Shown here in pieces: positions 3,169-60,306 of a stretch of 64,000 nt of DNA (position 1 is the stretch's first letter; every line of letters starts with the position of its first letter). This DNA is from Patescibacteria group bacterium (lineage in GTDB: Bacteria; Patescibacteriota; Patescibacteriia; Patescibacteriales; GWC2-42-12). The translations under genes and the position numbers were made by a program. The DNA lies in the NCBI GenBank assembly GCA_028707005.1, contig JAQTVB010000001.1, positions 755-64,754 on the forward strand. Direction: 5' to 3'. The notes beneath the pieces were generated by a model. The model was not told where the DNA came from. It ran no database searches and saw only the letters and a program-made list of their open reading frames with translations.

Positions 3169-3540
3169 TTATAGCACCTCCGGCGCCAGCGAAGCAATCT
3201 TGGCAAAACCCAACTGCTTTAATTCGCGCGCCACCGGGCCGAAAATTCTTGTGCCTTTAGGATCTTTTTTATCTTTTTCAATAATAACGCAAGCGTTATC
3301 GTCAAAACGTAAATACGCGCCGTCAGAACGCCTGATTTCTTTTTTGGTTCTGATGATTACTGCCTGCGCAATGTCTCCGTCTTTAATCGCGGTATGCGGT
3401 TCAGCTTCTTTAATTACTACGGTAATAATCTCCCCGACGCTGGCATATCGTTTTTTGTAACCGCCTTGAATTCTAATGCACATCGCTCTTTTAGCGCCAG
3501 TATTATCAGCAACTTTTAATATTGTTTGTACCTGTATCAT
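3169..3540 (-). CDS. rplN: 50S ribosomal protein L14
   Basis: [27 protein letters not shown] is highly conserved L14 sequence. Confidence 0.95.
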
Positions 3541-3571
3541 ACCTTAATTTCAAATTTAAAATTTAAAATTC

Positions 3572-3862
3572 TTAATATATCATGCGCCAGCGCTTTTCTT
3601 TGCTTAACGGGCGGCATTCAACAAACCGCACTTTATCGCCGACTTTATATTGATTCTTCTCGTCATGAACTTTGAACTTCCTGCTTACTTTAAACCGTTT
3701 ATGGTATTTCGGATATATTCTGGCGGTTTCAACCGCGACCACTCTGGTTTTATCCATTTTATCGCCTATAACCACGCCGCTAAACTTGCGTTTAATGACT
3801 TGGCGCTTAGCTGGCTGGCTATTTTGACTTTGTTCTACCATATTTATTATATTAATTTTCAA
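3572..3862 (-). CDS. rpsQ: 30S ribosomal protein S17
   Basis: KRQVIKRKFSGVVIGDKMDKTRVVAVE...KVGDKVRFVECRPLSKEKRW S17 OB-fold pattern. Confidence 0.9.
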   Translation of the reverse strand: MKINIINMVEQSQNSQPAKRQVIKRKFSGVVIGDKMDKTRVVAVETARIYPKYHKRFKVSRKFKVHDEKNQYKVGDKVRFVECRPLSKEKRWRMIY

Positions 3863-4474: not shown

Positions 4475-4565
4475 AGATTCAATTACAAATTGTCAATTAT
4501 CAATTACGAATTCACTTTATATTTGACGATTCTTAATTCGTAATTTTTAATTTTAAATTGGCTAA

Positions 4566-5255
4566 TTACTTCTTTTCTCCGACAATTTCTCCTTTGGCAG
4601 TCTCGCTTTCTTTCTTAAACACATCTCCCTTATATATCCATAACTTTATTCCAATGGTTCCATAGGTGGTTTTGGCCGTGGCTTTGGCGAAATCAATATC
4701 GGCTCTTAAGGTGTGCAACGGAACTTTGCCCGAGGTAAGCATTTCCGTCCTGGCGATTTCCGCGCCATTTAACCGGCCGCTGATAATTACTTTTACTCCT
4801 AAAGCGCCCGCTCTTTCTATCCGGCTAATCGCCTGCTTCATTACTCTTCTGAAAGGCATTCTTTTTTCAATGTCAATCGCCATCAAACCGGCGATAATCG
4901 CGCTCGATAAATTCGGCCTGTCAAATTCCGTGATATTCAAATTTATATCGCCCAACTTGAAATTCTTTAAAAATTTATCATGCAATTTCTTTTTTAAATC
5001 ACCCGCGCCGCTACCGCCGCGGCCGATTATAATCCCCGGCTTAGCCGTAAAAATACCGATTACAACCTTATGCCCGCTTCTTTCTATCTCCACCCGATCC
5101 ACGCCGGCTTCCCTAAACTCGGTGAATAAATATTTTCTTAAATTAACATCCTGCTCTAAATTTTTAATTAAAATCTTTCCAGTAGCAAACCATCGGGACG
5201 GCCAAGTCCTGGTAATATTCAACCTAAATACTTTTGGATTTACTTTATGTCCCAT
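4566..5255 (-). CDS. rpsC: 30S ribosomal protein S3
   Basis: MGHKVNPKVFRLNITRTWPSRWFA and KH-domain GRGGSG; 229 aa. Confidence 0.95.
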   Translation of the reverse strand: MGHKVNPKVFRLNITRTWPSRWFATGKILIKNLEQDVNLRKYLFTEFREAGVDRVEIERSGHKVVIGIFTAKPGIIIGRGGSGAGDLKKKLHDKFLKNFKLGDINLNITEFDRPNLSSAIIAGLMAIDIEKRMPFRRVMKQAISRIERAGALGVKVIISGRLNGAEIARTEMLTSGKVPLHTLRADIDFAKATAKTTYGTIGIKLWIYKGDVFKKESETAKGEIVGEKK

Positions 5256-5342: not shown

Positions 5343-5939
5343 TTATCCGCTCTTTCTCCTAAACATCTTCCCCACAAACCCCTTGCTGCCGCCTTCTATC
5401 CTGGCGTGGCCGCGGCGTCCTTCCATCCTCGGATCGGTAATTACTTTGCCTTCTTCTTTGGTTTCAATGTTCTTTTCTTTCTTGTCTTTTTTGGCCGGTT
5501 CTTTGATTTCAACGGCCGGTTCTTTTTTGGGCTTGGTTTCAAGCTTAATCGGCGAGGCCAAAACCTGCTTTTTCGCAGCCACCTTGCCCGAAGGCTTAAT
5601 CTCATCTAAAACCAAGTAAATATGACTGGTCCGTTTTCTGATGGGTGTTGCTCGTCCGTGCGCTCTGGGCATCCAGCGCTTCAAAGTCGGACCCTGGCCG
5701 ATGGTTATTTCTTTTATGAATAAATTATCTTTAACCAATTCAAAATTGTGCTCGGCGTTCGCCATGGCTGATTTTATGAGCTTAGCTACCGGCCCGGCGG
5801 CCAATTTATCTATAAATTGCAACTGGTCCAGCGCTTTGACTACCGGCATTTTTTTTATCAAATTAGCCACCAGTCTTATCTTGGTCGGCGACATTTTGAT
5901 AAATTTTAATTTCGCTTTTACTTCCATAAATAGATTCAA
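5343..5939 (-). CDS. rplV: 50S ribosomal protein L22 with ~80 aa K/E-rich C-terminal extension
   Basis: KAKLKFIKMSPTKIRLVANLIKKMPVVKALDQLQF L22 core; extension KPKKEPAVEIKEPAKKDKKEKN. Confidence 0.9.
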   Translation of the reverse strand: MNLFMEVKAKLKFIKMSPTKIRLVANLIKKMPVVKALDQLQFIDKLAAGPVAKLIKSAMANAEHNFELVKDNLFIKEITIGQGPTLKRWMPRAHGRATPIRKRTSHIYLVLDEIKPSGKVAAKKQVLASPIKLETKPKKEPAVEIKEPAKKDKKEKNIETKEEGKVITDPRMEGRRGHARIEGGSKGFVGKMFRRKSG

Positions 5940-6326: not shown

Positions 6327-7160
6327 TTATTTTACTCTTCTTGAAATAATTAATCTATTGGATCTCTTTTTGTGGTCCCTGGTTTTGACTCCCAGCGCCG
6401 GTTTGCCCCATTTTGTCTTCGGGTGCCTTAAACCGATTGATTGCTTGCCTTCACCGCCGCCATGCGGATGGTCCACCGGATTCATGGCCGTTCCTCTTAC
6501 CGTCGGCCTTACGCCCAAAAGTCTTTGCCGGCCGGCTCGGCCGATAACGATGTGATTTCTGTCCGGATTGCTTACTTGGCCGATTGTGCAAAGGCACTCT
6601 TTGTTCACCAGCCGAATTTCGCTGGAAGGCATTTTAATCTGCGCATAATCCCCTTCAACGCCCATCACAGACGCTAAATTGCCTGCCGCGCGGGCGACGC
6701 GCGCGCCCCGTCCCGGCTCTAATTCAAGATTATAAACCTGGATGCCGGCAGGAATGAATTTAATGGGCATGGCATTGCCGGTTTTAATTTCAATTTTATT
6801 CTTTGAACTTAAAATTTCCTCGCCGACATTCAGGCCCAGCGGCATAATGATATATCTTTTTTCGCCGTCTTTATAATATACCAAGCCGATTCTTGCACCG
6901 CGGTTCGGATCATATTCAATAGACATTACCTTGCCCGGAATATCAAATTTGTCTCTTTTAAAATCAATTTGGCGGAGATATCTTTTAACGCCGCCGCCCT
7001 GATGGCGCACCGTAATCTTGCCGGTGTTGTTTCTGCCCGCCTGGGGCTTCTTGATGGTAATCAAACTCGGCTCCGGTTCAGTTTTGGTAATATCCAAAAA
7101 ATCGTCGAATGTTGCCGACCGCCTGCCTGATGATGTAGGTTTTACTATTTTAATTCCCAT
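6327..7160 (-). CDS. rplB: 50S ribosomal protein L2
   Basis: GRNNTGKITVRHQGGGVKR and PVDHPHGGGEGK L2 signatures. Confidence 0.95.
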   Translation of the reverse strand: MGIKIVKPTSSGRRSATFDDFLDITKTEPEPSLITIKKPQAGRNNTGKITVRHQGGGVKRYLRQIDFKRDKFDIPGKVMSIEYDPNRGARIGLVYYKDGEKRYIIMPLGLNVGEEILSSKNKIEIKTGNAMPIKFIPAGIQVYNLELEPGRGARVARAAGNLASVMGVEGDYAQIKMPSSEIRLVNKECLCTIGQVSNPDRNHIVIGRAGRQRLLGVRPTVRGTAMNPVDHPHGGGEGKQSIGLRHPKTKWGKPALGVKTRDHKKRSNRLIISRRVK

Positions 7161-7244: not shown

Positions 7245-7730
7245 CTAAACTCCTTCGTAAATTTTAATGGTCTGGCCTTCGGGCAAGGTTACAATAGCCT
7301 TCTTCCAATCTTTTCTCTTGCCGCTGGTTCGGCCATAACGCGCCTTCTTGCCTATCTTATTAATAACGTTAACGCCGATCGGCTTGATGCCATAGATTTC
7401 TTTAACAGCTTTAGCTATTTCTATTTTATTGGCATCAAGCGCTACGGCGAAAACATATTTATTTAAAACACCTAAATTGCTCACTTTTTCAGTCACTAAC
7501 GGCTTGGCTAAAATTCTATAAGCATTGCCATAAACCGTTCTCACTTCCGTCTTTTTACCGCCGGCTTTAACGGTTTTCACGGTGCTGGGCGCGGCATACA
7601 AATCTTTCATGCTTTTGCCGGCCGGTTCGGTCTTAAGGACTTTTTTAGCAGCTTGAACCGGAGCGGGTTTTGCAACCTCTTTTGTCTTATCTGCTTTTTT
7701 ATCTTCAGTTTTCTTGCCGAATAGTGACAT
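7245..7730 (-). CDS. rplW: 50S ribosomal protein L23 with ~65 aa Lys/Ala-rich N-terminal extension
   Basis: C-terminal 95 aa (YRILAKPLVTEKVSN...KKAIVTLPEGQTIKIYEGV) is L23; the N-terminus is low complexity. Confidence 0.85.
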   Translation of the reverse strand: MSLFGKKTEDKKADKTKEVAKPAPVQAAKKVLKTEPAGKSMKDLYAAPSTVKTVKAGGKKTEVRTVYGNAYRILAKPLVTEKVSNLGVLNKYVFAVALDANKIEIAKAVKEIYGIKPIGVNVINKIGKKARYGRTSGKRKDWKKAIVTLPEGQTIKIYEGV

Positions 7731-7744
7731 AGATTACAATTTTT

Positions 7745-7876
7745 AATTTTTAATTTTATAATTTTTAAATAATAACCAAATATTCTAATTTTTAATAAAA
7801 TGCGAGTCGTGAGAGCTGAATTATATTTAGTTATTAAAAATTAAGATATTATTTAAAAATTATAAAATTAAAAATT
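7745..7876. repeat. Perfect 30-bp inverted repeat (aatttttaattttataatttttaaataata / its reverse complement) flanking a 72-bp core in the rplD-rplW spacer; long hairpin or miniature element
   Basis: Direct reading: arms at 7745-7774 and 7847-7876 are exact reverse complements. Confidence 0.7.
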
Positions 7877-8612
7877 ACCCGTATCTTTCTTCCGTTTTTT
7901 TAATCGCCGCCTTGGTCATGATTAAATTTTTGTATTTCAATAAATCCACCACGTTGATATTATCTAAATTCTGCAATTTAATGCCGGGCAAATTTCTGAC
8001 CGAATTATTTAATTTTTCATCAGCCTTGTCCACCATAATTAATATGCTCCGCTTCTTGTTTTCTTGTTTTTTTGTTTTCTTGTTTTCTTGTTTTTTTACC
8101 TCTTGGCTTTTTTGCTTACCTGCTTCGGCTGGCTCGGCCGCGAGCGGCTTGGCGCCCGTCTGCTTTTCCAGGCCGGCAACAATGGCGTTAAACGCCTTGG
8201 TTTTATATTCGGCCATCGCCAATTGATCTAAAACTATAAAATGATTGCTGGCTACTTTATCGGACAAAGCCATAAAAATGGCCGCTTGTTTCATTTTTTT
8301 ATTGATTCTCAATTTGAAATTGCGGTCTTTCCTCGGACCGAAAGTCACTCCGCCGCCGCGCCAGATCGGCGAGCGAGAAGAACCATGGCGCGCCCGGCCC
8401 GTTCCCTTTTGCGCCCAAGGCTTTTTGCCGCCGCCGCGCACTTCGCTTCTAATCAAAGTATGCGCTAAAACTTTCCTCATGTTGGCCATCTGGGCAACCA
8501 CCGCCTGATGCACTAAAGCCGCGTTGGCTGGCACGCCAAAAATTTTGGCACTAAGCTCCATTTCTCCCTTTTCTTCCGCTTGCTGATTGTAGATTTTTAC
8601 TTTTATCGCCAT
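7875..8612 (-). CDS. rplD: 50S ribosomal protein L4 with internal low-complexity insert ([15 protein letters not shown])
   Basis: [45 protein letters not shown]4 start; insert encoded by the (caagaaaa)n repeat at 8040-8100. Confidence 0.9.
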
Positions 8613-8624
8613 ATTTCATTATTA

Positions 8625-8738
8625 TTGTCATTGCGGGCTTGACCCGCAATCCAGGAGAGTGTGGCACGAACACATTATTTTACCATTCGCGTTCTTGCTA
8701 CATACTCCTGGATGGCGGCTCGGAGGCCGCCATGACAA
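8625..8738. mobile_element. MITE-like palindromic element of the TTGTCATTSCGGG family (TIR ttgtcattgcgggc ... gccgccatgacaa; internal ccaggag/ctcctgg palindrome)
   Basis: Terminal inverted repeats and sequence similarity to copies at 12311, 12581, 47406 and 59975. Confidence 0.55.
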
Positions 8739-8817
8739 AAATTATTCAAATCACTAATCTGTAAAATTGGGGGGAGTTTGCTTCCTCCGCCCCATGAGGA
8801 CTGGCCTCTCTAGACCT

Positions 8818-9339
8818 TTAGCTGGCCTCGTCGTCCAGCGCCGACCTGGCATCCCCATCGTATAGCAGTTTTCGCAAACGATCGGCAACGGCTCTGGCCG
8901 TAACCATCTTCTCAAATGCCCTCACAAACTGTCGGTGGTTGCGTCTCCACTGGATTGCCTCTTGGTCTTGGCTTAACTCAGCGGCCAGATCACGATACTC
9001 AACATCAAGTTCCGCCACCTCTTTTAGCACTACCGACTCGTTCACCATGATGAATAGTTGTGACATCAATGGTAGTGGTTGCAACAGCCTGCGCAGGCGT
9101 TCAACAAGGGCTCTGGCTCTAATCATTCGCTCAAACTTCCGGACGAACTCTTGATGTTCCTCTCTCCATTGGATTACCTCCTGGTATTGGCTTAACTCAG
9201 TGGCCAGATCACGATACTCGGCATCAAGCTCCGCCACCTCTTGGCGCAATTTTTCCACGTCCGCCACCACGAATGGCTGTGATTCAATTGGTCGTGGTCC
9301 AAACATCAGCTCCAACTCTGCTTCTGTAATTGCAATCAT
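8818..9339 (-). CDS. Hypothetical GC-rich coiled-coil protein made of two tandem ~55-aa repeats (VAELDAEYRDLATELSQYQEVIQWREEHQEFVRKFERMIRARALVERLRRLL / VAELDVEYRDLAAELSQDQEAIQWRRNHRQFVRAFEKMVTARAVADRLRKLL), inserted between rplD and rplC
   Basis: Single uninterrupted ORF; internal duplication seen directly in translation; GC roughly 55% versus about 40% in flanking genes. Confidence 0.6.
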   Translation of the reverse strand: MIAITEAELELMFGPRPIESQPFVVADVEKLRQEVAELDAEYRDLATELSQYQEVIQWREEHQEFVRKFERMIRARALVERLRRLLQPLPLMSQLFIMVNESVVLKEVAELDVEYRDLAAELSQDQEAIQWRRNHRQFVRAFEKMVTARAVADRLRKLLYDGDARSALDDEAS

Positions 9340-9394
9340 TTCTGACCTCCATTTCTCTTATTTGTTTTTTCTGTTTTTTATTCTATTGAAAATT

Positions 9395-10186
9395 TTACTT
9401 TGTCTTCTCCGCGACTAACTCAACTTTACTCACAACTTCTTTTTTCTCTTCCGTCTTTGTTTCCACCGCGGTTTCAGTTTTCACTTCCGGATTTTTCTCT
9501 TTCGCCACTTCAGTTTTCGCGGCTACTTCAACTTTCGGCTGCGCAATTTTCAGCTCCCCTTCTCCCTGAATCATCACCACGCTATTTCTCGCGCCCGGGA
9601 CTGCGCCGCTTACATATAGAATATTATTCGCCTGATCAACTTGCACGATTTTTACGTTGCTGGTTGTCACCCGGTCATTGCCCATGCGGCCGGACATCCT
9701 TTTGCCCTTCAAAACGTGCTGGATGCCGCCCGCGCCGATGGAGCCGGAAGTTCTTACCTGATCTTTGGTGCCATGAGTTTGAAAATGTCCGCTCCAGCCG
9801 TGCCGTTTCACGCCGCCCTGAAAACCCTTGCCTTTGGAAGTGCCGATCACCTTAACCGTATCACCAACCGCGAAAGTGCTTACATCAATGACATCGCCTA
9901 TCTTCAAATTTTTCACTTCATCTCTGAATTCCCTTAAATATTTTAAATTTTTCTTTCCATCCTTTGAAACTTGGCCGGCTTTCTTCAAATGGCCGAGTTG
10001 CGGCTGGCTAATATTTTTTTCTTTTCTTAAGCCAAACCCAAGCTGAACGGAATTATATCCATCGGTTTTAACATTCTTCAGCTGCACTACCGGACAAGGG
10101 CCGGCCTGAACTTTGGTTACGGCCACCACATTTTCACCCTGCCAAACCTGCGTCATTTCTAATTTTTTTCCTATAATATACTTCAT
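9395..10186 (-). CDS. rplC: 50S ribosomal protein L3 with ~60 aa C-terminal K/E/T-rich extension
   Basis: MKYIIGKKLEMTQVWQGENVVAVTKVQAGPCPVVQLK and GTSKGKGFQGGVKRHGWSG L3 motifs. Confidence 0.95.
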   Translation of the reverse strand: MKYIIGKKLEMTQVWQGENVVAVTKVQAGPCPVVQLKNVKTDGYNSVQLGFGLRKEKNISQPQLGHLKKAGQVSKDGKKNLKYLREFRDEVKNLKIGDVIDVSTFAVGDTVKVIGTSKGKGFQGGVKRHGWSGHFQTHGTKDQVRTSGSIGAGGIQHVLKGKRMSGRMGNDRVTTSNVKIVQVDQANNILYVSGAVPGARNSVVMIQGEGELKIAQPKVEVAAKTEVAKEKNPEVKTETAVETKTEEKKEVVSKVELVAEKTK

Positions 10187-10341
10187 ACTAAAATATGCTT
10201 TTGCTTCTTTAAGTTATAAACTAAAACTAAATACAGGATATAATCCTAATACTACAAATGTTACACGAATACTACAAATATAATAATTTTGTAGTATTTG
10301 CATACTATTCGTAGTATTCGCATTTTAATATTCGTAGATAT

Positions 10342-10367
10342 AAAAAACTGGTCTTCAACAAAACCAG
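10342..10367 (-). terminator. Stem-loop (ctggtcttcaacaaaaccag) followed by T-run on minus strand inside the 384-bp rpsJ-rplC spacer; intrinsic terminator or attenuator
   Basis: Hairpin plus A6 on plus strand (T6 on minus). Confidence 0.5.
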
Positions 10368-10570
10368 CTTAAGCCGCCCATGGCGGTTCAATTCTCTAGA
10401 CTTAATGGAATTTTAGCTGTTTTATTGGATTTACCTCGTTTTTATATCAACCATTATTCAAGCACTTTCCCGCAGGAGTTGCTTAAACAATCGTTAATAT
10501 TATCTAAAAAACATTCTAACTGATAATTAAATCTGTGTCAATCTGTCCAATCTATGTTCAATTTGTGCCC

Positions 10571-10948
10571 TTACATCTTAATCTCAATATCCACGCCAGC
10601 CGGCAGCCCCAGATTAGTCAACGACTCGATAGTCTTGGCCGTGGGTTCAATAATATCTACCAGCCTCTTATGAATTCTGATTTCATATTGATCCCGGGAA
10701 TCTTTATGCACAAAAGTAGAGCTATTGACTGTGTACTTTTTCTTTTCCGTCGGCAAAGGTATGGGTCCGTAAATCTGCGCTCCGGTCCGCTCGGCCGTGT
10801 CAATAATAGTCTTGGTTGATTGGTCAATAATCTTGTGATCAAAAGCCTTAATCTTAATGCGGATCCTTTGCTTAGACTCCTCATTAGCTTTTATCTCTTC
10901 TTTCGCCTTATCGTCTCTAATGGACTTTTTGTCTTTAGCTTCGGTCAT
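10571..10948 (-). CDS. rpsJ: 30S ribosomal protein S10 with ~25 aa N-terminal extension
   Basis: [42 protein letters not shown]10 core. Confidence 0.95.
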
Positions 10949-11090
10949 GTAAAATAATTAATTCAAATCTACAAATGATATGCCAATCTACAAATATTTG
11001 TAGATTAGGATTATGTTTGTAGATTAGGATTATGTTTAAATAAGAACAAATTTGCCCCGCCGTTTAGTTACGGCAGGGCCGTATCTGCCA

Positions 11091-12278
11091 TTATTTAATA
11101 ATCTTAGTGACTACTCCAGCGCCCACGGTTTTGCCGCCTTCGCGAATAGCGAATCTCATCTTTTCTTCCAGAGCTACTTGGGCGATTAATTTAATCTTTA
11201 AATTAACCGTATCGCCGGGCATGACCATTTCCGTGCCGGCCGGCAATTCAACTTCGCCGGTGACATCGGTGGTGCGGATATAGAATTGCGGCTTATAGCC
11301 TTTGAAAAACGGCTTGTGGCGGCCGCCTTCTTCTTTGGTTAAGACGAAAACTTCGCCTTCAAATTCAGAATGAGGATGAACCGTGCCCGGTTTGGCCAAA
11401 ACCTGGCCTCTTTCCACTTCATCTTTTTTGGTGCCGCGTAAAAGCAAACCGGCGTTATCGCCAGCTTGGCCCTGATCCAATGATTTATTGAACATTTCAA
11501 TGCCGGTGATAACGGTCTTTTGCGTATCCCTTAAACCGATAATTTCCACTTCATCGTTTAATTTGATGGTGCCTCTCTCAATTCTGCCGGTCACGACTGT
11601 GCCGCGGCCTTCAATTGAGAAAATGTCTTCAACCGGCATCAAGAACGGCTTATCGGTTTCGCGCTTGGGTTCGGGGATATATTCATCCAAGGCTTTGGCC
11701 AAATCCAAAATGGCTTTGCCGTATTCCCCGTCCGGACTTTCCAGCGCCTTTAAAGCGCTGCCGCGGATAATCGGCGTGGTGTCGCCCGGGAATTCGTATT
11801 TCTTTAATAAATCGCGGATTTCTTCCTCAACCAAGTCAATTAATTCTTTATCTTCCACCATATCGCACTTGTTCAAGAAGACAATAATGTATGGTACGCC
11901 GACCTGTCTGGCCAAAAGAATGTGCTCTCTGGTTTGGGGCATGGGTCCGTCAGCGGCGGAAACCACTAAAATGGCTCCGTCCATTTGCGCCGCGCCGGTG
12001 ATCATGTTTTTAACATAGTCAGCATGGCCCGGGCAGTCCACGTGCGCATAGTGCCTTTTTTCAGTTTCATACTCAACGTGGCAAGTGGCGATAGTAATAC
12101 CGCGCGCCTTTTCTTCCGGCGCCGAGTCAATCTGGTCAACGCTTTTTTGGGTAGCCTTAAAACCCTTGTGATGCAATACCGTAAGCATTGCCGCGGTCAA
12201 GGTTGTTTTGCCATGATCCACATGGCCGATGGTTCCCACGTTAACATGGGGTTTTGAGCGATCAAATTTTTCTGCCAT
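11091..12278 (-). CDS. tuf: Elongation factor Tu
   Basis: [27 protein letters not shown] GTPase motifs; 395 aa. Confidence 0.98.
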
Positions 12279-12310: not shown

Positions 12311-12339
12311 TTGTCATTCCCGCGAAAGCGGGAATCCAG
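12311..12339. repeat. Partial copy of the MITE-like repeat (ttgtcattcccgcgaaagcgggaatccag)
   Basis: Identical 29-mer to the left end of element 12581-12700. Confidence 0.6.
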
Positions 12340-12420
12340 AAATTTTGGGGTTATCGCCCGATAATTTAAAAGGTGGGCGTCCAACCGTCTATAATTAATT
12401 TTATTATGAATTTTATTAAG

Positions 12421-12449: not shown

Positions 12450-12527
12450 TGGAGCCCCCGATTGGAATCGAACCAATTACCTCGACCTCTTGCGAGGCCG
12501 CAGTCTAGCCATGTGACTTACGGGGGC
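12450..12527 (-). ncRNA. 78-nt tRNA-like element. It has a 7-bp acceptor stem, U8, D-arm with G18G19, T-arm GGTTCGATTCC, discriminator and encoded CCA. The anticodon arm is replaced by a 6-bp stem capped by a GCAA tetraloop (GGCCTC-GCAA-GAGGTC); no 7-nt anticodon loop can be folded.
   Basis: Manual folding of GCCCCCGTAAGTCACATGGCTAGACTGCGGCCTCGCAAGAGGTCGAGGTAATTGGTTCGATTCCAATCGGGGGCTCCA. Confidence 0.45.
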
Positions 12528-12580: not shown

Positions 12581-12700
12581 TTGTCATTCCCGCGAAAGCG
12601 GGAATCCAGGAGGGAGCGGCAGGAATGCGGCCGTTATGATAACATGTTCATGCCTCGCTCTCCTGGATTCCCGACAGCCTGCGGCTTCGGGAATGACAAC
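12581..12700. mobile_element. Full-length 120-bp MITE-like element: TIR ttgtcattcccg / cgggaatgacaa, internal hairpins (tcccgcgaaagcggga; ccaggagag...ctctcctgg)
   Basis: Perfect 12-bp terminal inverted repeats; member of dispersed family. Confidence 0.6.
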
Positions 12701-21175: not shown

Positions 21176-21249
21176 TGGTCGGGGTGCGCGGAATCGGACC
21201 GCGGCTACAAGCACCCCATGCTCGCGTACTGCCACTATACGACACCCCG
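21176..21249 (-). tRNA. tRNA-Pro (anticodon GGG), 74 nt with encoded CCA, C1:G72 pair, G37
   Basis: Manual cloverleaf: CGGGGTG acceptor, D stem GTAT/GTAC, anticodon stem CGAGC/GCTTG with loop AUGGGGU, T arm CGCGG-TCCGATT-CCGCG, ACCA. The overlapping ORF 20975..21259 is spurious. Confidence 0.85.
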
Positions 21250-21538: not shown

Positions 21539-22140
21539 TTACCCGCACGGAGCGGGTGGTAGCGTGGCCATTGGCGCCTGCTCGTTCGACGCAGGCAGAC
21601 GCAGATTGGAGCGATGAATCCGAAATGGTAGAGGAGAGCCTGCTACCATGAAGTCCACTTCAGAATCGTTCGAAGCGGGATTCCCGGTTATTCTCACCGC
21701 GCTTCCTGCTTCTATGCGCAGCGTCCTTCCGGCCGGCTGCCCTCCCGCCGGCGACATTTCCAGCGCGAAGTTGGCCGGCTGCACAAAGATCGCTCGATCC
21801 CCCTTGCGAAACACTGCTACTGACTGTATTTGTTGCATAGTTATACTCTTTCAGATCGTTGCCTGCGAACCGTAATTCGGGATGTGTAAATCTCCGACCC
21901 AGACTAAGGCCGGCGATTTGGTCTTAGGATCCTTGAGGCTAATACGGGCCAGTTCAATTCGGCCGTGGCCGTTTCTAACCTTTAGCCTCCCCCTGACACT
22001 AAATTTTACGCTAGGATCAATGCGAAACCCCGAGTACCGGCATCTTCTCTTTGATCTTCTCCGGCACAGCCTGTAACAGTGAGCTATCCAATTAGTATGC
22101 ATCCGCCTGCCAATGAGCTGTTGTTTGTTTTTTTTCATAG
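21539..22140 (-). other. Anomalous GC-rich (~55-60%) 600-bp segment with overlapping ORFs on both strands (99, 95, 75, 64 aa), none protein-like. It is bracketed by terminators; candidate ncRNA, decayed gene or foreign DNA next to tRNA-Pro.
   Basis: Composition shift and ORF-track pattern; no conserved RNA motif identified. Confidence 0.3.
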
Positions 22141-22230
22141 TTTTTGTTATTACCGCGAATATTGGCGCTCCAAAAGTTCACCCTCTGAATAGCCAATTGC
22201 GCGATAATAACGAATTTTCAAAGAACATAT

Positions 22231-22270
22231 AAAAACTGGCTCCCCGTTAAGAGAGCCAGTTTTTGTTTTC
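22231..22270. terminator. Bidirectional intrinsic terminator (ctggctccccgttaagagagccag flanked by A5 and TTTTTGTTTT)
   Basis: 8-bp stem and flanking runs. Confidence 0.7.
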
Positions 22271-22620
22271 CCTAGTGAGTTTTAACTTAATCAATTCGTT
22301 AAAACACCACAAAAAACTGCTCTCCCTAGCGAGAACCAATAAAAGTAAAATGAAAAAACAGTTTTTTGTATGGTCTTAAGCATAATTATTAAATTTTTAT
22401 CAACCCGACTTTGGCGCGAGCACCTAAACTCTCATTCGGATGATCGCAATTTGTAGAATGCGAGTCTAATCATACCTGTGGATAATTATAGCAAATTGTA
22501 CATAAAAAGCAAGTTATTCTGTAAATTATATATTCGCATGTGCCCCTATTTGCCTGCCTGCCGGCAGGCGGGTAGTGGGGCTCCGCCGCAGGCGGACAAC
22601 CAAAATATGGCTAATTTTAG

Positions 22621-22657
22621 AAAAAAAGAGGGGTGACCGACATCTGCCGATCACCCC
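22621..22657 (-). terminator. Minus-strand terminator after hypothetical gene 22676-22981 (ggggtga...tcacccc, then T7)
   Basis: Hairpin plus A7 on plus strand. Confidence 0.7.
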
Positions 22658-22675
22658 GTGTTCATCCCCCCGTGT

Positions 22676-22981
22676 TCAGCCCCGTTTCCCTTCCTGGGCT
22701 TTTTTCTGTCTTCGCTCAATCTGGCGCCCGTAGGATTCTTGAATCATGCTCCAGGCTTGTTCCCTGGAAATTCTCGGACCACGAGGAATGGCCGCCTTCC
22801 TTAATCCCGGATAGAACCCGGCCAGCACTGCATGCAGGCTGTCGCGCGCCGCCGCTACCCAGCTAGAGGCGCAATTAACTCCTACCCACCAAGTCTTGTT
22901 GTCGACAGAAACTCGGATATTGGCTGCCCCCTGCTCATGACCGACCACGCACTCCAACACTTGAAAACTGTTGTTTTTCAT
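22676..22981 (-). CDS. Hypothetical GC-rich protein (101 aa)
   Basis: ORF followed by its own terminator; GC-rich island. Confidence 0.45.
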   Translation of the reverse strand: MKNNSFQVLECVVGHEQGAANIRVSVDNKTWWVGVNCASSWVAAARDSLHAVLAGFYPGLRKAAIPRGPRISREQAWSMIQESYGRQIERRQKKAQEGKRG

Positions 22982-23009
22982 CTTGCTTCTCCTTCCTGTA
23001 ATGGCCCGG

Positions 23010-23345
23010 CTAATCCCCTTGGCCGCACTTATGCCCCGGTATCTGATCAGTAAAATCGCACTCCAGCCTGGCGTAGATTCTCTCCACGTCCCACTCTGCG
23101 GTATTAACTGACACCGGCCGCAACTGACAAATGAAAAGTTCGCTCAAAGCGAAAGCCATGGCATGGCTCACAGCCTCGGCCGGCGATTTTCCTATGAAAC
23201 AACTCGTAACACTACGGCCATCCCTGGACTTCATCGTTACTTCGGCCTTGATGGTGCACCTGGAACCGACACGCCCAATGGTAACCAAGTATCTTTCCAT
23301 AGTGAACAGCTTGCTCACACTAACGTCTTGTAAAGTTTGTTGCAT
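23010..23345 (-). CDS. Hypothetical GC-rich protein (111 aa), forms two-gene cassette with 22676-22981
   Basis: ORF 28 bp upstream of partner; the (caagaaaa)n repeat lies upstream at 23346-23420. Confidence 0.45.
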   Translation of the reverse strand: MQQTLQDVSVSKLFTMERYLVTIGRVGSRCTIKAEVTMKSRDGRSVTSCFIGKSPAEAVSHAMAFALSELFICQLRPVSVNTAEWDVERIYARLECDFTDQIPGHKCGQGD

Positions 23346-23504
23346 TTGTTTTTCTCTTTCCTTTTTGTTTTCTTGATTGTTTTTTTGTTTTCTTGATTTT
23401 TTGATTTTTTGTTCTCTTGTTTATTTAATTACCGAAAACCGCCAACCAGCCAGATTCGCTCATAAGCCGTTTACGATAATTAAGCCGGTTGTTGAAAGAG
23501 CGAT

Positions 23505-32092: not shown

Positions 32093-32755
32093 TTATTTAT
32101 ACACCCGGTGAAATTTATAAAATAAATAACTAAAAATAATCAAAGCAAGCAGGCCCAAGCCGGCGTATTTCCCTACCTTGCCTTCAAAAGACCGCCAGAC
32201 CGGCTTGTTGAAAAATTTTGTTTTTAATCGCGGAATAGTGATCAAGGCCTTGGCCATCTCTAAAATGGGAAATTCCTCCTTCTCCCCCACCACCAAAACA
32301 TATTTGCCTAAATTATCCGGGCTAGAAACTTTTATAAAATAATAGCCGGCCTCACCGAATTTTTTTACCCATGGCCCTTGCCAATAATCATCGCCCGCGT
32401 ATTCTTCATAAAACGCGGTCCAGGCCGCCGCTTCGGGATTAAGCGTGGCGAAAACCGCGGCCGCTTGTCCTAGCTCCGGCGCATACTCTATGGCCACAGT
32501 TTTATCTTTACCAATATTCGGCAAAGCCGGCACCAGAATTTGCCAATAAAGCTCCTGCGCTTCTTTCAAGTCAATAACGTAAAATGCCGGCTGGCCTTTT
32601 AGTTCGCCATAAAATGCCTGGGAAACTCTGGGATTCTTGATAACGACCAGCTGATCGCCGGTGATATAGCGCGGCTGATGCGCTCCAGCTGCCGCCGCCA
32701 CGCCGAAACTGCAAAATACCAAGCCTAATATTAAAATAAACCGATATTTCATCAT
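32093..32755 (-). CDS. Hypothetical exported protein with C-terminal TM anchor (220 aa)
   Basis: Signal peptide plus C-terminal hydrophobic helix. Confidence 0.5.
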   Translation of the reverse strand: MMKYRFILILGLVFCSFGVAAAAGAHQPRYITGDQLVVIKNPRVSQAFYGELKGQPAFYVIDLKEAQELYWQILVPALPNIGKDKTVAIEYAPELGQAAAVFATLNPEAAAWTAFYEEYAGDDYWQGPWVKKFGEAGYYFIKVSSPDNLGKYVLVVGEKEEFPILEMAKALITIPRLKTKFFNKPVWRSFEGKVGKYAGLGLLALIIFSYLFYKFHRVYK

Positions 32756-32756
32756 A

Positions 32757-32800
32757 AATTGTTTTATTGTTTTCTTGCTTTCTTGCTTTCTTGCTTGTCC
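32757..32800. repeat. (caagaaag)n repeat gttttcttgctttcttgctttcttg upstream of 32755 start, adjacent to hairpin tcctccg-aagcttcag-cggagga
   Basis: 25-nt identity with the nrdR 3' end (40880-40904). Confidence 0.6.
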
Positions 32801-32809
32801 TCCGAAGCT

Positions 32810-33914
32810 TCAGCGGAGGAGGGTTTTCTTGCTTCGTAAATACGCTTCCATAAAGCCGTTAAGCTCTCCGTCCAAGACGCTTTGAATATCAGAAGTTTCC
32901 TGCTCGGTGCGATGGTCTTTAACTAACTGGTAGGGCTGCATGACGTAAGAGCGGATCTGCTTGCCCCATTCGGCTTTTTCTAATTTGCCGCGCACTTTTT
33001 TTTCTTCACTATCCTTTCTTTCTTCGGCCAGCTTGAATAATTTAGCTTTTAAAATCCGCAGGGCCGTTTCCCTGTTTTGCAATTGCGATCTCTGCGTCTG
33101 GCAAGCGACCACAATGCCGCTCGGCTTATGCAAAATACGCACCGCGGTTTCCACTTTATTGACATTTTGCCCGCCCGCGCCCGAAGAGCGGTAAGTCGTC
33201 ACCTCCAGATCGGCCGGCTTGATTTCCATTATTTCAGTGTCCGGCAATTCGGGAATAACTTCCACTAAAGCGAAAGAGGTGTGGCGCATCTGTTCGGCAT
33301 CAAACGGCGAAATGCGCACCAAGCGGTGCACTCCTGATTCGCTCTTTAAATAACCGTAAGCCCAGTTGCCGATAATACGGTAGCTGGCGTTTTTAATGCC
33401 GGCTTCGTTGCCCGCGTTGCGCTCCACTAATTCGGCTTGCCAGCCGCGCTTTTCCGCGAATCTTAAAAACATGCGCTCCAGCATCTGCGCCCAGTCCTGC
33501 GCGTCCACGCCGCCGGTGCCGGCGTGTAAAGAAATAATAGCATTATTTTTATCGTATTTGCCGGAAAATAAAACAAAAAACTCCAGCTCCTCGTAGCGGC
33601 GCTTGAACTCCTGGTATTTTAAATTAGCTTCATCAGCGATTGATAAATCACGCTCTTTCACGGCTTCGGCAACATACTGTTCCAAATCGGTAATTTCTTT
33701 TTTTAGCTTTTCCCACTGGCCGATTTCTTTTTCTTCATTTTCCGCCTGTCGGCTGATGGCCACGGCCGCTTCCCGATTTTGCCAAAAATCAGGCGCGCTC
33801 ATCTTTAACTTCTGGCCGCCGACTTCGACCATTCTTCTGTCCAAATCAAAGCAACCTCCAGGTATCTAGGAGGCGTTCTCTCAATATTTCCAGATTTTTC
33901 AATAAATTTTCCAT
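32810..33914 (-). CDS. prfB: Peptide chain release factor 2 with programmed +1 frameshift (frame-0 peptide [22 protein letters not shown] ends at CTT TGA T at 33846-33851, then continues [12 protein letters not shown]...)
   Basis: SPF and GGQ motifs; manual translation of the upstream frame shows the canonical CUU-UGA shifty stop. Confidence 0.85.
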
Positions 33915-40789: not shown

Positions 40790-40865
40790 ATCATTTTGTT
40801 TAATATAAATTTAATTTTCTCACCGCTTGCCTCGCCGAAGTTTTAGCGAAGGCGGGAATCCGGAT

Positions 40866-41351
40866 TTATTTTTTTGTTTTCTTGCTTTCTTGCTTTCTTG
40901 TTTTCTTCAGCAGCTTGTTCAATTCCCGCCTGAATTCGTGGGCGTCTTTAAATGATTCATAAACACTGGCGAAACGGATATAGGCAACCTGATCAAACCG
41001 CTTCAAATTCTTCATGACGATTTGCCCGATATGGTCCGAAGTTACTTCGTTTTTCCTTAAAATTTGCAAGTCGCGCTCAATCAGATTAACCAGCTTCTTG
41101 AAGTTATCGTCCGTGACCGGCCTTTTTTCCAAGGCTCGCTTCAAGCCTTTGACTAACTTCTCTCTGGAATATGATTCTTTGCGGCCATCGCGCTTAACCA
41201 CTACCAGATCCAGAATTTCCACCTCCTCATAAGTAGAAAACCTAAAACCACACTTTAAGCACTCGCGCCTCCGTCTGATAGACAAGCCGTCTGCCGCCAC
41301 TCTGGAGTCAATCACCTTGGAATCTTCATAATAACAGGCTGGACATCTCAT
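40866..41351 (-). CDS. nrdR: Transcriptional repressor NrdR (start MRCPAC; ORF extends to 41393); C-terminal KQESKKTKK tail encoded by the (caagaaag)n repeat
   Basis: MRCPACYYEDSKVIDSRVAADGLSIRRRRECLKCGFRFSTYE zinc ribbon plus ATP-cone. Confidence 0.95.
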   Translation of the reverse strand: MRCPACYYEDSKVIDSRVAADGLSIRRRRECLKCGFRFSTYEEVEILDLVVVKRDGRKESYSREKLVKGLKRALEKRPVTDDNFKKLVNLIERDLQILRKNEVTSDHIGQIVMKNLKRFDQVAYIRFASVYESFKDAHEFRRELNKLLKKTRKQESKKTKK

Positions 41352-47228: not shown

Positions 47229-47442
47229 GCGAATTATGAATCTCTAATTTTCTCACCCCATGATTCATTATTCCTGTTTATATCTTAACCTATACTTAAA
47301 AATATAGCAAGTGGTTTGATTCTACCGACTTTTCCACAGGGTGTATAAATCTTTTATACACCTGGCTTTTGCCCCCTTGATAAAGGGGGTTAGGGGGATT
47401 TTATTTTGTCATTTCCGCGCAGGCGGGAATCCAAAATTTATT

Positions 47443-60015: not shown

Positions 60016-60306
60016 TCTCTGGTTAGAAACGCTTTACATGTCTAGCGCTAAATATCTTTGTTTTCCTTGTTTTTATACTGGTCGTTTCTGTTTAACAGAT
60101 TATCGGTTACTCCAACGTAAAATACATTATGCGATTTATTAGTGTTTATGTATACAAAATAGTATTTCTCATAAATCATATTCGTTCTAACTTACCAGAG
60201 ATTGCCGCGTCGTCGCTAACGCTCCTCCTCGCAATGACATACAAGAAAAGATTGTCGTATCATCCAACCTCGGTTGTTTTAACTAGGGCTGGCTTCGGGA
60301 ATGACA
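59975..60306. mobile_element. Composite MITE-like element in the spacer between the two giant genes: ttgtcattgcgagga ... tcctcgcaatgacat inverted termini, AT-rich 230-bp core, extra half-site cgggaatgacaa
   Basis: Inverted repeats at 59975-59989 and 60224-60240; family similarity. Confidence 0.5.

Follow-up and report, generated by a model that had tools for sequence, protein, structure and literature searches.

Why does a gene for an orphan protein lie between rplC and rplD in the S10 operon of a Patescibacteria group bacterium, and how might it have come there? In the 64,000-nt stretch of DNA analysed here (hereafter the window), the gene order rpsJ-rplC-rplD-rplW-rplB and onwards is retained. 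The slot in question is bounded upstream by rplC (9395..10186; ribosomal protein L3, 263 aa; taken from the ORF list and matched by Pfam PF00297, Ribosomal_L3) and downstream by rplD (7875..8612; ribosomal protein L4, 245 aa; Pfam Ribosomal_L4, E 1e-60), both on the minus strand. The two genes are 782 bp apart, whereas the junction measures 4-21 bp in most close relatives, which are Falkowbacteria-like genomes. The encoded L3 is 65-78% identical to L3 of related loci and carries a lineage-specific, K/E/A-rich C-terminal tail. Within the slot lies an ORF of 173 aa (ORF173; 8818..9339, minus strand), listed by NCBI as hypothetical protein PHS62_00095. A first-pass annotation had pointed to this ORF and to extra DNA in a conserved adjacency; the coordinates and the Pfam matches of both neighbours bear out the former, and the short junctions of the relatives the latter. 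It had further proposed a horizontally acquired or mobile gene that rode a MITE-like miniature element into the operon. We favour another reading, to which we assign a probability of about 0.6: an accessory gene cassette that has no promoter of its own and is transcribed together with the rplC-led operon, next to which a MITE has inserted independently.

The composition of ORF173 is shifted only mildly and is near native. Its GC content is 52% (GC3 55%), compared with 46% for rplC, 45% for rplD, 43% for rpsJ and 42% for rplW, so that the originally claimed difference of roughly 55% against 40% was overstated; values for the window's ribosomal-protein genes lie between 40% and 51%, the entire window has 45.6%, and several other window ORFs also reach at least 52%. 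The start of the gene stands out more clearly. ORF173 has a perfect Shine-Dalgarno (SD) site, GGAGG-N6-ATG, while an SD-like site precedes just 6 of the 63 window ORFs, with no ribosomal-protein gene among the six and none at rplD. Translation of ORF173 would probably use its own SD site, unlike that of the SD-less host genes. The product is acidic (pI 4.9), and an AF2 model (overall pLDDT 67; helices 75-84) predicts paired long helices, as expected of a coiled coil or helical hairpin, at residues 28-50/53-86 and 97-123/126-160. In place of the earlier label 'coiled coil', 'two predicted helical hairpins' is the better wording. Helical hairpins are also predicted by AF2 for one of the cassette proteins of a relative (L024_B, see below). 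A Foldseek search of the ORF173 model against the PDB returned generic antiparallel coiled coils (p85 iSH2, Smc), none with E < 1e-3, and ORF173 had no significant match in Pfam, NCBIfam, PHROG, PADLOC or the PDB sequences.

ORF173 contains a direct, in-frame tandem repeat, which repeat searches and alignments place at 9085..9303 (unit 1, aa 13-85) and 8866..9084 (unit 2, aa 86-158), both on the minus strand. Two repeats of about 55 aa and about 70% identity had been annotated; the duplication is confirmed, but the unit is 73 aa (219 nt) long, and the units are 71% identical at the nucleotide level and 56% at the protein level, with a central 75 nt that is 87-93% identical. Substitutions between the units fall almost equally on the three codon positions (21/18/24), and together with a dN/dS of about 0.47 this indicates that constraint has been only weak. 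The even spread would also be expected if ORF173 were no gene at all and merely a chance ORF in duplicated non-coding DNA, or the result of misassembly, and a single relative in the protein databases fits this idea as well. However, 173 codons follow a perfect SD site, the homolog in a related genome (L019) shows pS of 0.87-0.92 against pN of 0.39-0.42, and four other genomes keep ORFs in this slot. Furthermore, a separate assembly (Logan L220, from SRR22315508) is 100% identical to window positions 8711-10316, its contig ending inside the MITE-like element, and this excludes a MAG assembly artefact for the arrangement. We consider a non-gene hardly tenable. A diversity-generating retroelement was also considered as a source of the repeat and rejected: mismatches are distributed symmetrically (G>A 13, A>G 11, C>T 7, among others) rather than concentrated at the adenines of one copy, and both copies lie within one ORF.

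On either side of ORF173 are untranslated stretches that recur elsewhere. The leader (9340..9394, minus strand) comprises 55 A-rich nucleotides and ends with the GGAGG site (9346-9350), placed 6 nt ahead of the ATG. Both modules of a related locus, L001, have leaders that align with it, in the form ...ACAGAAACAAGAAAACGGAGGTyTGAAATG, and the leader in L024 aligns as well; an SD-bearing, A-rich leader is common to the window, L001, L024 and L025. The trailer (8750..8817, minus strand) is predicted by RNA folding to form a small hairpin (8803-8816) followed by a G/C hairpin, GGGGCGGAG...CUCCCCCC (8768-8794), then AAUUUU and, 3' of it, the conserved motif ACAGATTAGTGAT (8750-8762). A simple G5/C5 stem, a T-run and the motif AAAGATTAGTGAT are shared by the same four cassettes, and in L001, L024 and L025 the hairpin plus ATTTTTAAAGATTAGTKA is confined to the rplC-rplD junction. 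Within the window, AAAGATTAGTGAT is not enriched elsewhere (4 matches at up to 2 mismatches versus 2.3 expected), and the approximately 120 matches of a 17-nt trailer motif in viral contigs are apparently at chance level, the two with an upstream hairpin being judged unrelated. With its GC stem followed by A(C)TTTT(T), the trailer looks like a terminator, with loops of 8-16 nt that are larger than canonical and a T-run of four T in the window; a terminator scan called no cassette hairpin in the window, L024 or L001.

To place these features in context, we surveyed the junction in 99 related loci, covering 4-9 kb around the locus of each relative. The distance between rplC and rplD varies from 4 to 796 bp, and the occupants include MITEs, small genes in pairs, a duplicated fused gene and an unrelated ORF on the opposite strand; intergenic spacers are generally long and variable in this lineage. 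Five loci carry a small-ORF cassette in the gap: the window, L019, L001, L024 and L025. L001 and L024 encode two small proteins of 71-83 aa each, first a basic one (A; pI 10.5-11) and then an acidic or neutral one (B); a basic partner is missing from the cassettes of the window, L019 and L025. The two modules of L001 share a near-identical leader and first five codons as well as the last two codons and the start of the hairpin, while their bodies are 24% identical. In the B type, of which only three members are known, the C-terminus EEEVxPxxYGI is the best-conserved protein segment; it is absent from ORF173-type proteins. BLAST could not align the ORF bodies of the window, L001, L024 and L025, and hhalign comparisons of the ORF173 type with the A and B types of L001, L024 and L025 gave P-values of 0.019 and 0.17, which are not significant and cover an N-terminal motif only. 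Homology of the ORF173-type unit to the A- and B-type ORFs is no more than possible, and the notion of one cassette family therefore stands mainly on the common leader and trailer.

The closest relative of ORF173 is P0002, a protein of 90 aa corresponding to a single unit and encoded directly downstream of rplC in L019. It was the single homolog in a profile search of 1.84 billion representative proteins (E 4.5e-8; 2.5e-24 with the profile), and a word-indexed search of 5.8 billion clusters returned ORF173 itself only; a eukaryotic Ig-repeat protein from the profile search, P0003, was spurious. The leader in L019 has no GGAGG, and the contig stops 46 nt past the P0002 gene, so that any trailer would lie beyond it. 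In all ortholog pairs of cassette proteins pN is smaller than pS (the ratios are 0.42-0.71, and pS is close to saturation when the window is compared with L019), indicating coding constraint.

Such constraint, together with the near-native composition, would suit an old, vertically inherited and lineage-specific protein associated with the ribosome, which the clade's ancestor acquired a single time and which was later lost several times. Position and orientation after rplC are the same in all five loci, the A-type partner is as basic as many ribosomal proteins, and in a neighbour-joining (NJ) tree of concatenated S10, L3, L4 and L23 (four short proteins) four of the five cassette loci, namely the window, L001, L024 and L019, fall into one clade with a bootstrap of 91. 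That clade also contains the cassette-less L002, L020 and L023, two of which are well-supported sisters of cassette carriers: L020 of L024 (bootstrap 95, NJ) and L023 of L019 (bootstrap 91, NJ), both with clean junctions of 6-21 bp. L025, on the other hand, bears a cassette and lies outside the clade. Given that close relatives differ in having the gene, it is an accessory insertion rather than one of the core ribosomal genes; how often it was gained and lost is uncertain because the inner nodes of the tree are weak (bootstrap 51-74). The first-pass annotation had reasoned that the same gene at this position across the lineage, with native composition, would indicate an old accessory gene rather than an insertion. 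This pattern is seen in part, with P0002 after rplC in L019 and cassettes with like leader and trailer in the slot of L001, L024 and L025; the sisters L020 and L023 lack them. Lineage-wide presence, as shown by ribosomal proteins, was not observed, since ORF173 is absent from most close relatives. The cassette proteins are also only 35-49% identical where L3 and L4 are 77-88% identical, their bodies show no recognisable similarity from one cassette type to another, the family numbers 2-3 members among billions of database sequences, and the presumed SD-dependent translation differs from that of ribosomal-protein genes. We do not think that ORF173 is a ribosomal component, and an ancestral ribosome-associated protein appears unlikely to us.

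The succession of a small basic and a small acidic gene in L001 and L024 brings to mind type II toxin-antitoxin pairs. By this account, the cassette would be a selfish two-gene module for toxin-antitoxin, immunity or defence functions, which degenerated to one duplicated acidic partner in the window and was maintained because deletions in an essential operon are risky. Patchy distribution, orphan and fast-evolving proteins and an own SD site all agree with such a module. Toxin-antitoxin modules, however, normally autoregulate their own promoter, and the cassette has none; the basic partner is missing in three of the five cassettes, and the window version consists of a single acidic, duplicated ORF. 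No toxin-antitoxin family was matched: with ORF173, P0002 and proteins A and B as queries, no Pfam, NCBIfam or PADLOC model passed its curated cut-off, and these searches, like those of PHROGs and the PDB sequences, gave only coiled-coil noise below threshold (bZIP, 4HB, LmuB, SbcC). A degenerate selfish module is rather improbable on these grounds.

Between the trailer and rplD sits the palindrome that had been annotated as a MITE-like element at 8625-8738, directly beside the ORF. Inverted repeats and folding support the element, at 8618-8745 with a core GTCAT...ATGAC at 8627-8738; the adjacency does not hold, as the core palindrome lies 79 nt from the stop codon of ORF173. It consists of a hairpin, ATCCAGGAG, a long central stem, CTCCTGGAT and a second hairpin, its arms (8618-8639/8724-8745 and 8641-8671/8691-8721) are 81-82% complementary, and its outer stem ends 5 nt from the ATG of rplD. 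The region 8613-8817 folds into a multi-hairpin structure of -85 kcal/mol (z = -7.1), equalled in none of 200 shuffles. At 112-128 nt, and overlapped solely by chance ORFs of up to 41 aa, the element has the inverted repeats, the small non-coding size and the several dispersed copies of MITE/REP sequences: a second full copy lies at 12583-12697, partial copies at 12313, 47408 and 59977-60305, and further family members in L002, L023, L024 and L027, of which the last three have them at other junctions. ATTATT occurs on both sides of the 8627-8738 copy, where the flanks are AT-rich, and no consistent duplication accompanies the 12583 copy.

Palindromic elements of the MITE/REP type are well known from other bacteria, such as the Correia elements of Neisseria, the Rickettsia palindromic elements and the enterobacterial ERIC and BIME sequences. 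Like these, the element described here is short (about 110-125 nt) and non-coding, has terminal inverted repeats (GTCAT...ATGAC), is dispersed in intra-operon intergenic spacers and is predicted to form a very stable hairpin in mRNA. Unlike the described families, it shows no clear target-site duplication, its three-hairpin architecture with conserved ATCCAGGAG and CTCCTGGAT boxes is particular to it, and it has no sequence relationship to them, with only chance-level matches to miRNA hairpins in Rfam. We found no literature on insertions at the rplC-rplD junction or on MITEs in these bacteria.

Did the gene arrive on this element? ORF and MITE adjoin each other in the window and in L024, and half copies lie beside the cassette of L025. 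The element is, however, found alone at the rplC-rplD site in at least nine loci (gaps with a MITE and no ORF in L002/L029, L027/28/31/32/38/39, L030 as a half copy, and L035), and same-family copies also occupy other sites, such as the rplD-rplW spacers of L024 and L027, without the ORF. Because MITEs occur at the junction without the cassette and elsewhere, the gene did not arrive on the MITE; it is not bracketed by MITE ends, the conserved leader and trailer of the cassette exclude the element, and no full same-family copy was found beside the L001 cassette. Nor did a horizontal donor emerge from phage, plasmid or viral collections: tblastn against the phage and plasmid collections found no match, and two protein profiles and the MITE sequence pattern found no relatives in viral contigs. 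Of the original interpretation, an accessory piece of extra DNA thus remains, while the horizontal donor, to which the mildly shifted composition lends little, and the transport by a MITE do not. A horizontally acquired, MITE-borne passenger is largely refuted and in our view barely plausible. The MITE-like family seems instead to colonise intergenic spacers repeatedly, this site without a cassette included, and its presence in the window would represent a separate insertion.

How the cassette is expressed can be approached from its surroundings. A promoter scan called nothing between rplC and ORF173, and between the trailer and rplD it gave no convincing sigma-70-like promoter. The transcription unit is defined by elements upstream of rplC, namely a predicted promoter at 10513-10541, a structured leader and a hairpin that resembles a terminator or attenuator, and the cassette would be transcribed by read-through from this rplC-led operon. 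The leader RNA upstream of rplC is structured and strongly covarying. In E. coli, an L4-responsive leader with an attenuator precedes rpsJ in the S10 operon. The arrangement upstream of rplC follows the same logic, with the difference that the leader lies between rpsJ and rplC and not before rpsJ. Comparison of the rplC leader and the cassette trailer with Rfam (at gathering thresholds and at E <= 1) gave no real match. The ribosomal-protein regulatory RNAs of E. coli are mostly restricted to Gammaproteobacteria (PMC3616713).

A hairpin so close to a stop codon raises the possibility that the act of translation matters and not the product. A ribosome finishing the ORF would occlude the hairpin, which starts 1-24 nt past the stop. 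Read-through into rplD and the genes behind it would thereby be coupled to translation, much as with an attenuator or a monitor of the SecM/MifM type. SecM, MifM and VemP are regulatory monitor ORFs, to which leader-peptide attenuators are comparable, and they resemble the cassette in combining a fairly long ORF, a poorly conserved body and an RNA hairpin soon after it, upstream of the next gene. The conserved ends and variable bodies of the ORFs, including the near-identical module ends of L001, are in line with this, as are the hairpin start 1-10 nt past the stop codon in L001, L024 and L025, the conserved C-terminus of the B type and the identity of the next gene: L4 lines the ribosome exit tunnel. 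Against it, and unlike SecM, MifM and VemP, the cassette is apparently dispensable in sister genomes and has no arrest motif known here; in the window the hairpin starts 24 nt past the stop codon and is followed by 150 nt, MITE included, before rplD. The ORF173 type further shares no C-terminal motif with the B type, and pN below pS and the retained helical-hairpin architecture point to constraint at the protein level. A regulatory ORF is therefore a very doubtful candidate. Its most specific form, translation-sensing control of the L4-led part of the operon, in which the terminating ribosome masks the hairpin and so licenses continuation into rplD, is more doubtful still. Under this form, leader, SD site, first and last codons and hairpin would be kept, and the body of the ORF would be free to drift, duplicate or be replaced.

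We return to the promoterless accessory cassette as the preferred reading. The cassette comprises an A-rich leader, a GGAGG site, the orphan ORF itself and, at the 3' end, a G/C hairpin with T-run and AAAGATTAGTGAT motif. It lacks a promoter of its own and occupies a variable slot just past rplC in a subclade of Falkowbacteria-like Patescibacteria. ORF173 arose when a helical-hairpin unit of 73 aa was duplicated in tandem and in frame; L019 has this unit in single form, as a gene of 90 aa in the corresponding place. The product of ORF173 is likely to be an acidic four-helix accessory protein that was gained, lost or exchanged among close relatives and that appears to evolve about twice as fast as L3 and L4. 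We would guess that it is a small protein which the cell can do without, possibly selfish or niche-specific, and which exploits a highly expressed, deletion-protected site. Promoterless gene cassettes that depend on an external promoter are familiar from integrons and from phage 'morons'. The present cassette is similarly compact, has its own ribosome-binding site and 3' hairpin, lies between resident genes and is presumably expressed from the host operon promoter, with varying slot occupants and tandemly duplicated modules. In contrast to integron cassettes and morons, the slot is one fixed chromosomal junction and no phage or plasmid relatives were found; the flanks, unlike those of integron cassettes, may be diverged orthologous UTRs and not recombination sites.

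As it stands, the cassette is a well-documented curiosity and not a new system. It nevertheless reveals that the L3-L4 adjacency, usually treated as invariant, is a hot spot in one lineage of Patescibacteria, where such extras are unexpected given the tiny genomes of these organisms. The junction also offers a clean natural case of the origin, duplication and turnover of orphan small proteins under expression signals that are themselves conserved. If the translation-sensing reading were true, the cassette would represent a novel type of regulator for ribosomal-protein operons, in which a long monitor ORF precedes the L4 gene. Should the cassette regulate L4 and the downstream genes, or should its product bind ribosomes, it would bear on how ribosome synthesis is controlled in reduced, SD-poor bacteria.

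The str/S10 ribosomal gene cluster of this Patescibacteria metagenome-assembled genome lies on the minus strand of the window, where the ORF list and Pfam place tuf (11091-12278), rpsJ (10571-10948), rplC (9395-10186), rplD (7875-8612), rplW (7245-7730), and rplB (6327-7160). The 782-bp gap between rplC and rplD contains, in operon orientation, an A-rich leader of 55 nt ending in GGAGG-N6-ATG, an ORF of 173 codons (ORF173; 8818-9339, minus strand; hypothetical protein PHS62_00095 at NCBI), a trailer (8750-8817) with a G/C hairpin, a short T-run, and the motif ACAGATTAGTGAT, and finally a palindromic element of 112-128 nt (8618-8745), whose outer stem stops 5 nt short of the rplD start codon. 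Positions 8711-10316 are 100% identical in an independent Logan assembly of run SRR22315508; the Logan contig ends within the palindrome, where a repeat present in several copies would be expected to break an assembly. Coding regions of the window also contain short runs of 8-nt period (TTGTTTTC/TTGTTTTT, plus strand), at 8040-8128, 23337-23433, 32743-32815, and 40858-40930; the first lies inside rplD and encodes a K/Q/E/N-rich insertion of L4.

The first-pass annotation had described ORF173 as a tandem duplication with units about 70% identical, and an in-frame duplication is indeed present, its copies sharing 71% of nucleotides and 56% of amino acids (87-93% identity across a central 75-nt stretch). 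The unit, however, measures 73 aa (219 nt) rather than about 55 aa, and the proposed GC contrast of about 55% versus 40% holds in direction but is smaller: ORF173 has 52% GC (GC3 55%), compared with 42-46% in the four adjoining ribosomal genes and 45.6% in the whole window. Given that several further ORFs of the window are equally GC-rich, this shift is mild. The translation signals are more telling, as an SD-like motif precedes only 6 of the 63 window ORFs, none of them a ribosomal-protein gene, and ORF173 starts behind an ideally spaced, perfect GGAGG. Several ribosomal-protein genes without SD sites have a conserved motif, TAATTGAyAATTyGTAATTGAwTCT (about 25 nt), right against their ATG (directly upstream of start codons 4474, 5255, 7160, and 16456; also near 5939). 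This motif may act as an alternative signal for initiation or regulation, or represent a repeat of intergenic DNA. At 21539-23345 (minus strand), adjoining tRNA-Pro (21176-21249), lie four small ORFs of 95-111 aa with 49-59% GC, one of them with an SD site; here the window may have a further patch of small accessory or foreign genes, next to a tRNA gene.

ORF173 encodes an acidic protein (pI 4.9), which AF2 without an alignment folds into two helical hairpins (H28-50/H53-86 and H97-123/H126-160; helix pLDDT 75-84, overall mean 67). No real match was found in Pfam, NCBIfam, PHROGs, PADLOC, or PDB sequences, or by Foldseek against the PDB. Searching 1.84 billion representative proteins with a profile built from both units returned one true relative, P0002 (E = 4.5e-8), a single-unit protein of 90 aa sharing the core QWR..H..FVRKFE.MI.A.A. 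Its gene lies directly 3' of rplC in L019, a contig from an independent sample whose L3 core is 77% identical to that of the window. Comparison of the window units with P0002 shows saturation at synonymous sites (pS 0.87-0.92) and a pN of 0.39-0.42, evidence for a moderately constrained protein-coding gene; that ORF173 is a non-gene or an artefact is the least probable of the readings considered. Constraint between the two units themselves is weak (dN/dS about 0.47; 21/18/24 mismatches by codon position).

Our survey of the rplC-rplD gap covered 18 loci gathered through L4 from genomes of species representatives and 80 metagenome loci gathered through an L3 alignment. The gap is 4-21 bp in most close relatives (L033, L020, L023, L021, L022, L026, L037, L040, L036, and L034), so that the window does hold extra DNA, as the first-pass annotation implied, but small-ORF cassettes occur in L001, L024, L025, and L019 as well. 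L001 (gap 796 bp) and L024 (787 bp) have a pair of small ORFs each, a basic A (71-78 aa, pI 10.5-11) followed by an acidic to neutral B (79-83 aa). In L025 (589 bp), a B-type ORF (3376-3642) is broken by an in-frame TAA after codon 71, past which the conserved C-terminal motif EKVNPEDFGLPRDIKIG follows in frame; pseudogenization, a gene split, or read-through may explain this. L074, a more distant relative, has an AT-rich insertion of 571 bp at the junction (4497-5067), with an unrelated ORF of 79 aa in the opposite orientation, which shows this site to be a general hot spot.

The cassettes share their ends. The window, L001, L024, and L025 have in common an A-rich leader with GGAG(G) and a trailer in which a G5...C5 hairpin of varying inner sequence is followed by A(C)TTTTTAAAGATTAGTKA; in the whole set of fetched loci, the rplC-rplD junction is the only place with this trailer. 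In L001, the leaders and first five codons of the two modules are almost identical. The bodies of ORF173-type and A/B-type ORFs gave no BLAST alignment, and their profile match (P = 0.019 and 0.17) is confined to an N-terminal hydrophobic-strand-plus-helix motif, with A and B matching each other at P = 0.0014. AF2 predicts one helical hairpin for the B protein of L024 (H11-30/H36-65), the same predicted architecture as each ORF173 unit. A and B orthologs retain 35-46% identity between genomes whose L3 cores retain 77-88%, so these proteins evolve roughly twice as fast as L3.

The palindromic element follows a different distribution. It is built from GTCAT, a hairpin, ATCCAGGAG, a long stem, CTCCTGGAT, a hairpin, and ATGAC; a further full copy of 115 nt (12583-12697) lies upstream of the tRNA and tuf region, and partial copies at 12313-12345, 47408-47433, and around 59977-60305. 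In the same region, ARAGORN calls a tRNA at 12450-12527 (minus strand) with a four-base anticodon, 'gcaa', and no amino-acid identity (Rfam tRNA-Sec score just 22.6 bits); an Rfam scan of the window at gathering thresholds returned no tRNAs, missing even tRNA-Pro. In relatives, the family occupies other spacers (for example, rplD-rplW in L024 and L027 and two sites in L023), and at least nine loci have it at the rplC-rplD junction without any ORF: L002/L029 (gap 186 bp), L027/28/31/32/38/39 (142 bp), and, as a half copy, L030 (46 bp). L035 has a different palindromic element alone (168 bp). Between genomes, the left halves of copies of the window's family are visibly more alike than the rplC genes (about 76% nucleotide identity). 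With dispersed and ORF-free copies, the element thus behaves as a MITE/REP-like family, a new member of this class, for which neither a transposase partner nor a clear target-site duplication was found. ORF173 is not bracketed by the element's ends and the element reaches the junction without an ORF, so the earlier model of a passenger gene riding a MITE fails and is highly improbable.

On a neighbor-joining tree of concatenated S10, L3, L4, and L23 (732 columns, 100 bootstraps), the window, L001, L002, L020, L024, L019, and L023 form one clade (bootstrap 91), four of whose seven members carry a cassette. Cassette-bearing L024 is sister to L020 with its 21-bp gap (bootstrap 95), as is L019 to L023 with 6 bp (91), and L025 falls outside this clade, grouping with L021 and L022, whose junctions are tight (87). 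Inside the clade, the branching order does not match the two cassette types, but its nodes are weak (57-74). Such a distribution calls for multiple losses, or else for multiple gains or exchanges, and under either history the cassette is accessory. An old ribosome-associated accessory protein, with losses, is unlikely; on testable features of membership, the cassette fell outside core ribosomal proteins, as well as outside TA modules and DGRs. In layout it resembles TA pairs, and a degenerate TA-like or defence pair is an unlikely reading; in its promoterless logic it is akin to integron cassettes and phage morons. A literature search found nothing on insertions at the rplC-rplD junction in these bacteria, and we regard the cassette as an accessory insertion of small genes, specific to this lineage, into a conserved operon.

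Upstream of rplC lies a promoter-like site (TTGACA-17-TAGAAT, 10541-10513), followed by a structured leader and a terminator-like hairpin (10370-10345), and no promoter-like site was called between rplC and ORF173; the cassette would therefore be transcribed together with rplC. It would be translated via its own SD site, and its hairpin may end or stabilise part of the transcripts. A translation-coupled regulatory ORF for rplD, from which ORF173 is separated by trailer and palindrome, is improbable. Dispensability, orphan status, fast turnover, duplication, and a foreign-style translation signal favour a small protein that is non-essential, perhaps selfish, and placed in a highly expressed site protected from deletion; confidence in the overall picture is roughly 0.6.

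Throughout this group, rpsJ and rplC are separated by a spacer of 180-620 bp. Promoter, structured leader, and terminator-like hairpin occupy 10345-10541 (minus strand; core hairpin about 10444-10501), and the same arrangement was called in L001 (1966-2204) and L024 (1949-2186) and recurs in some 20 further loci. Perfect, long, AT-rich hairpins made of TACGAAT/TACAAAT-type repeats flank rpsJ and precede rplC (10246-10320 and 10962-11029); their Rfam matches are chance-level miRNA-precursor models only. The leader forms a conserved hairpin of three helices whose internal loop, CAACUCC ... GGAAAGUG, is invariant. Across 24 loci, compensatory changes affect 16 of its 20 pairs, pairing is kept in 89% of cells (38-46% with partners slid), and none of 500 shuffles reached the observed values. 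It has no Rfam match. Taken together with its own promoter and downstream terminator, the structured leader looks like an undescribed ribosomal-protein leader or attenuator of the rplC-led operon in Patescibacteria, and this candidate RNA may outrank ORF173 in interest.
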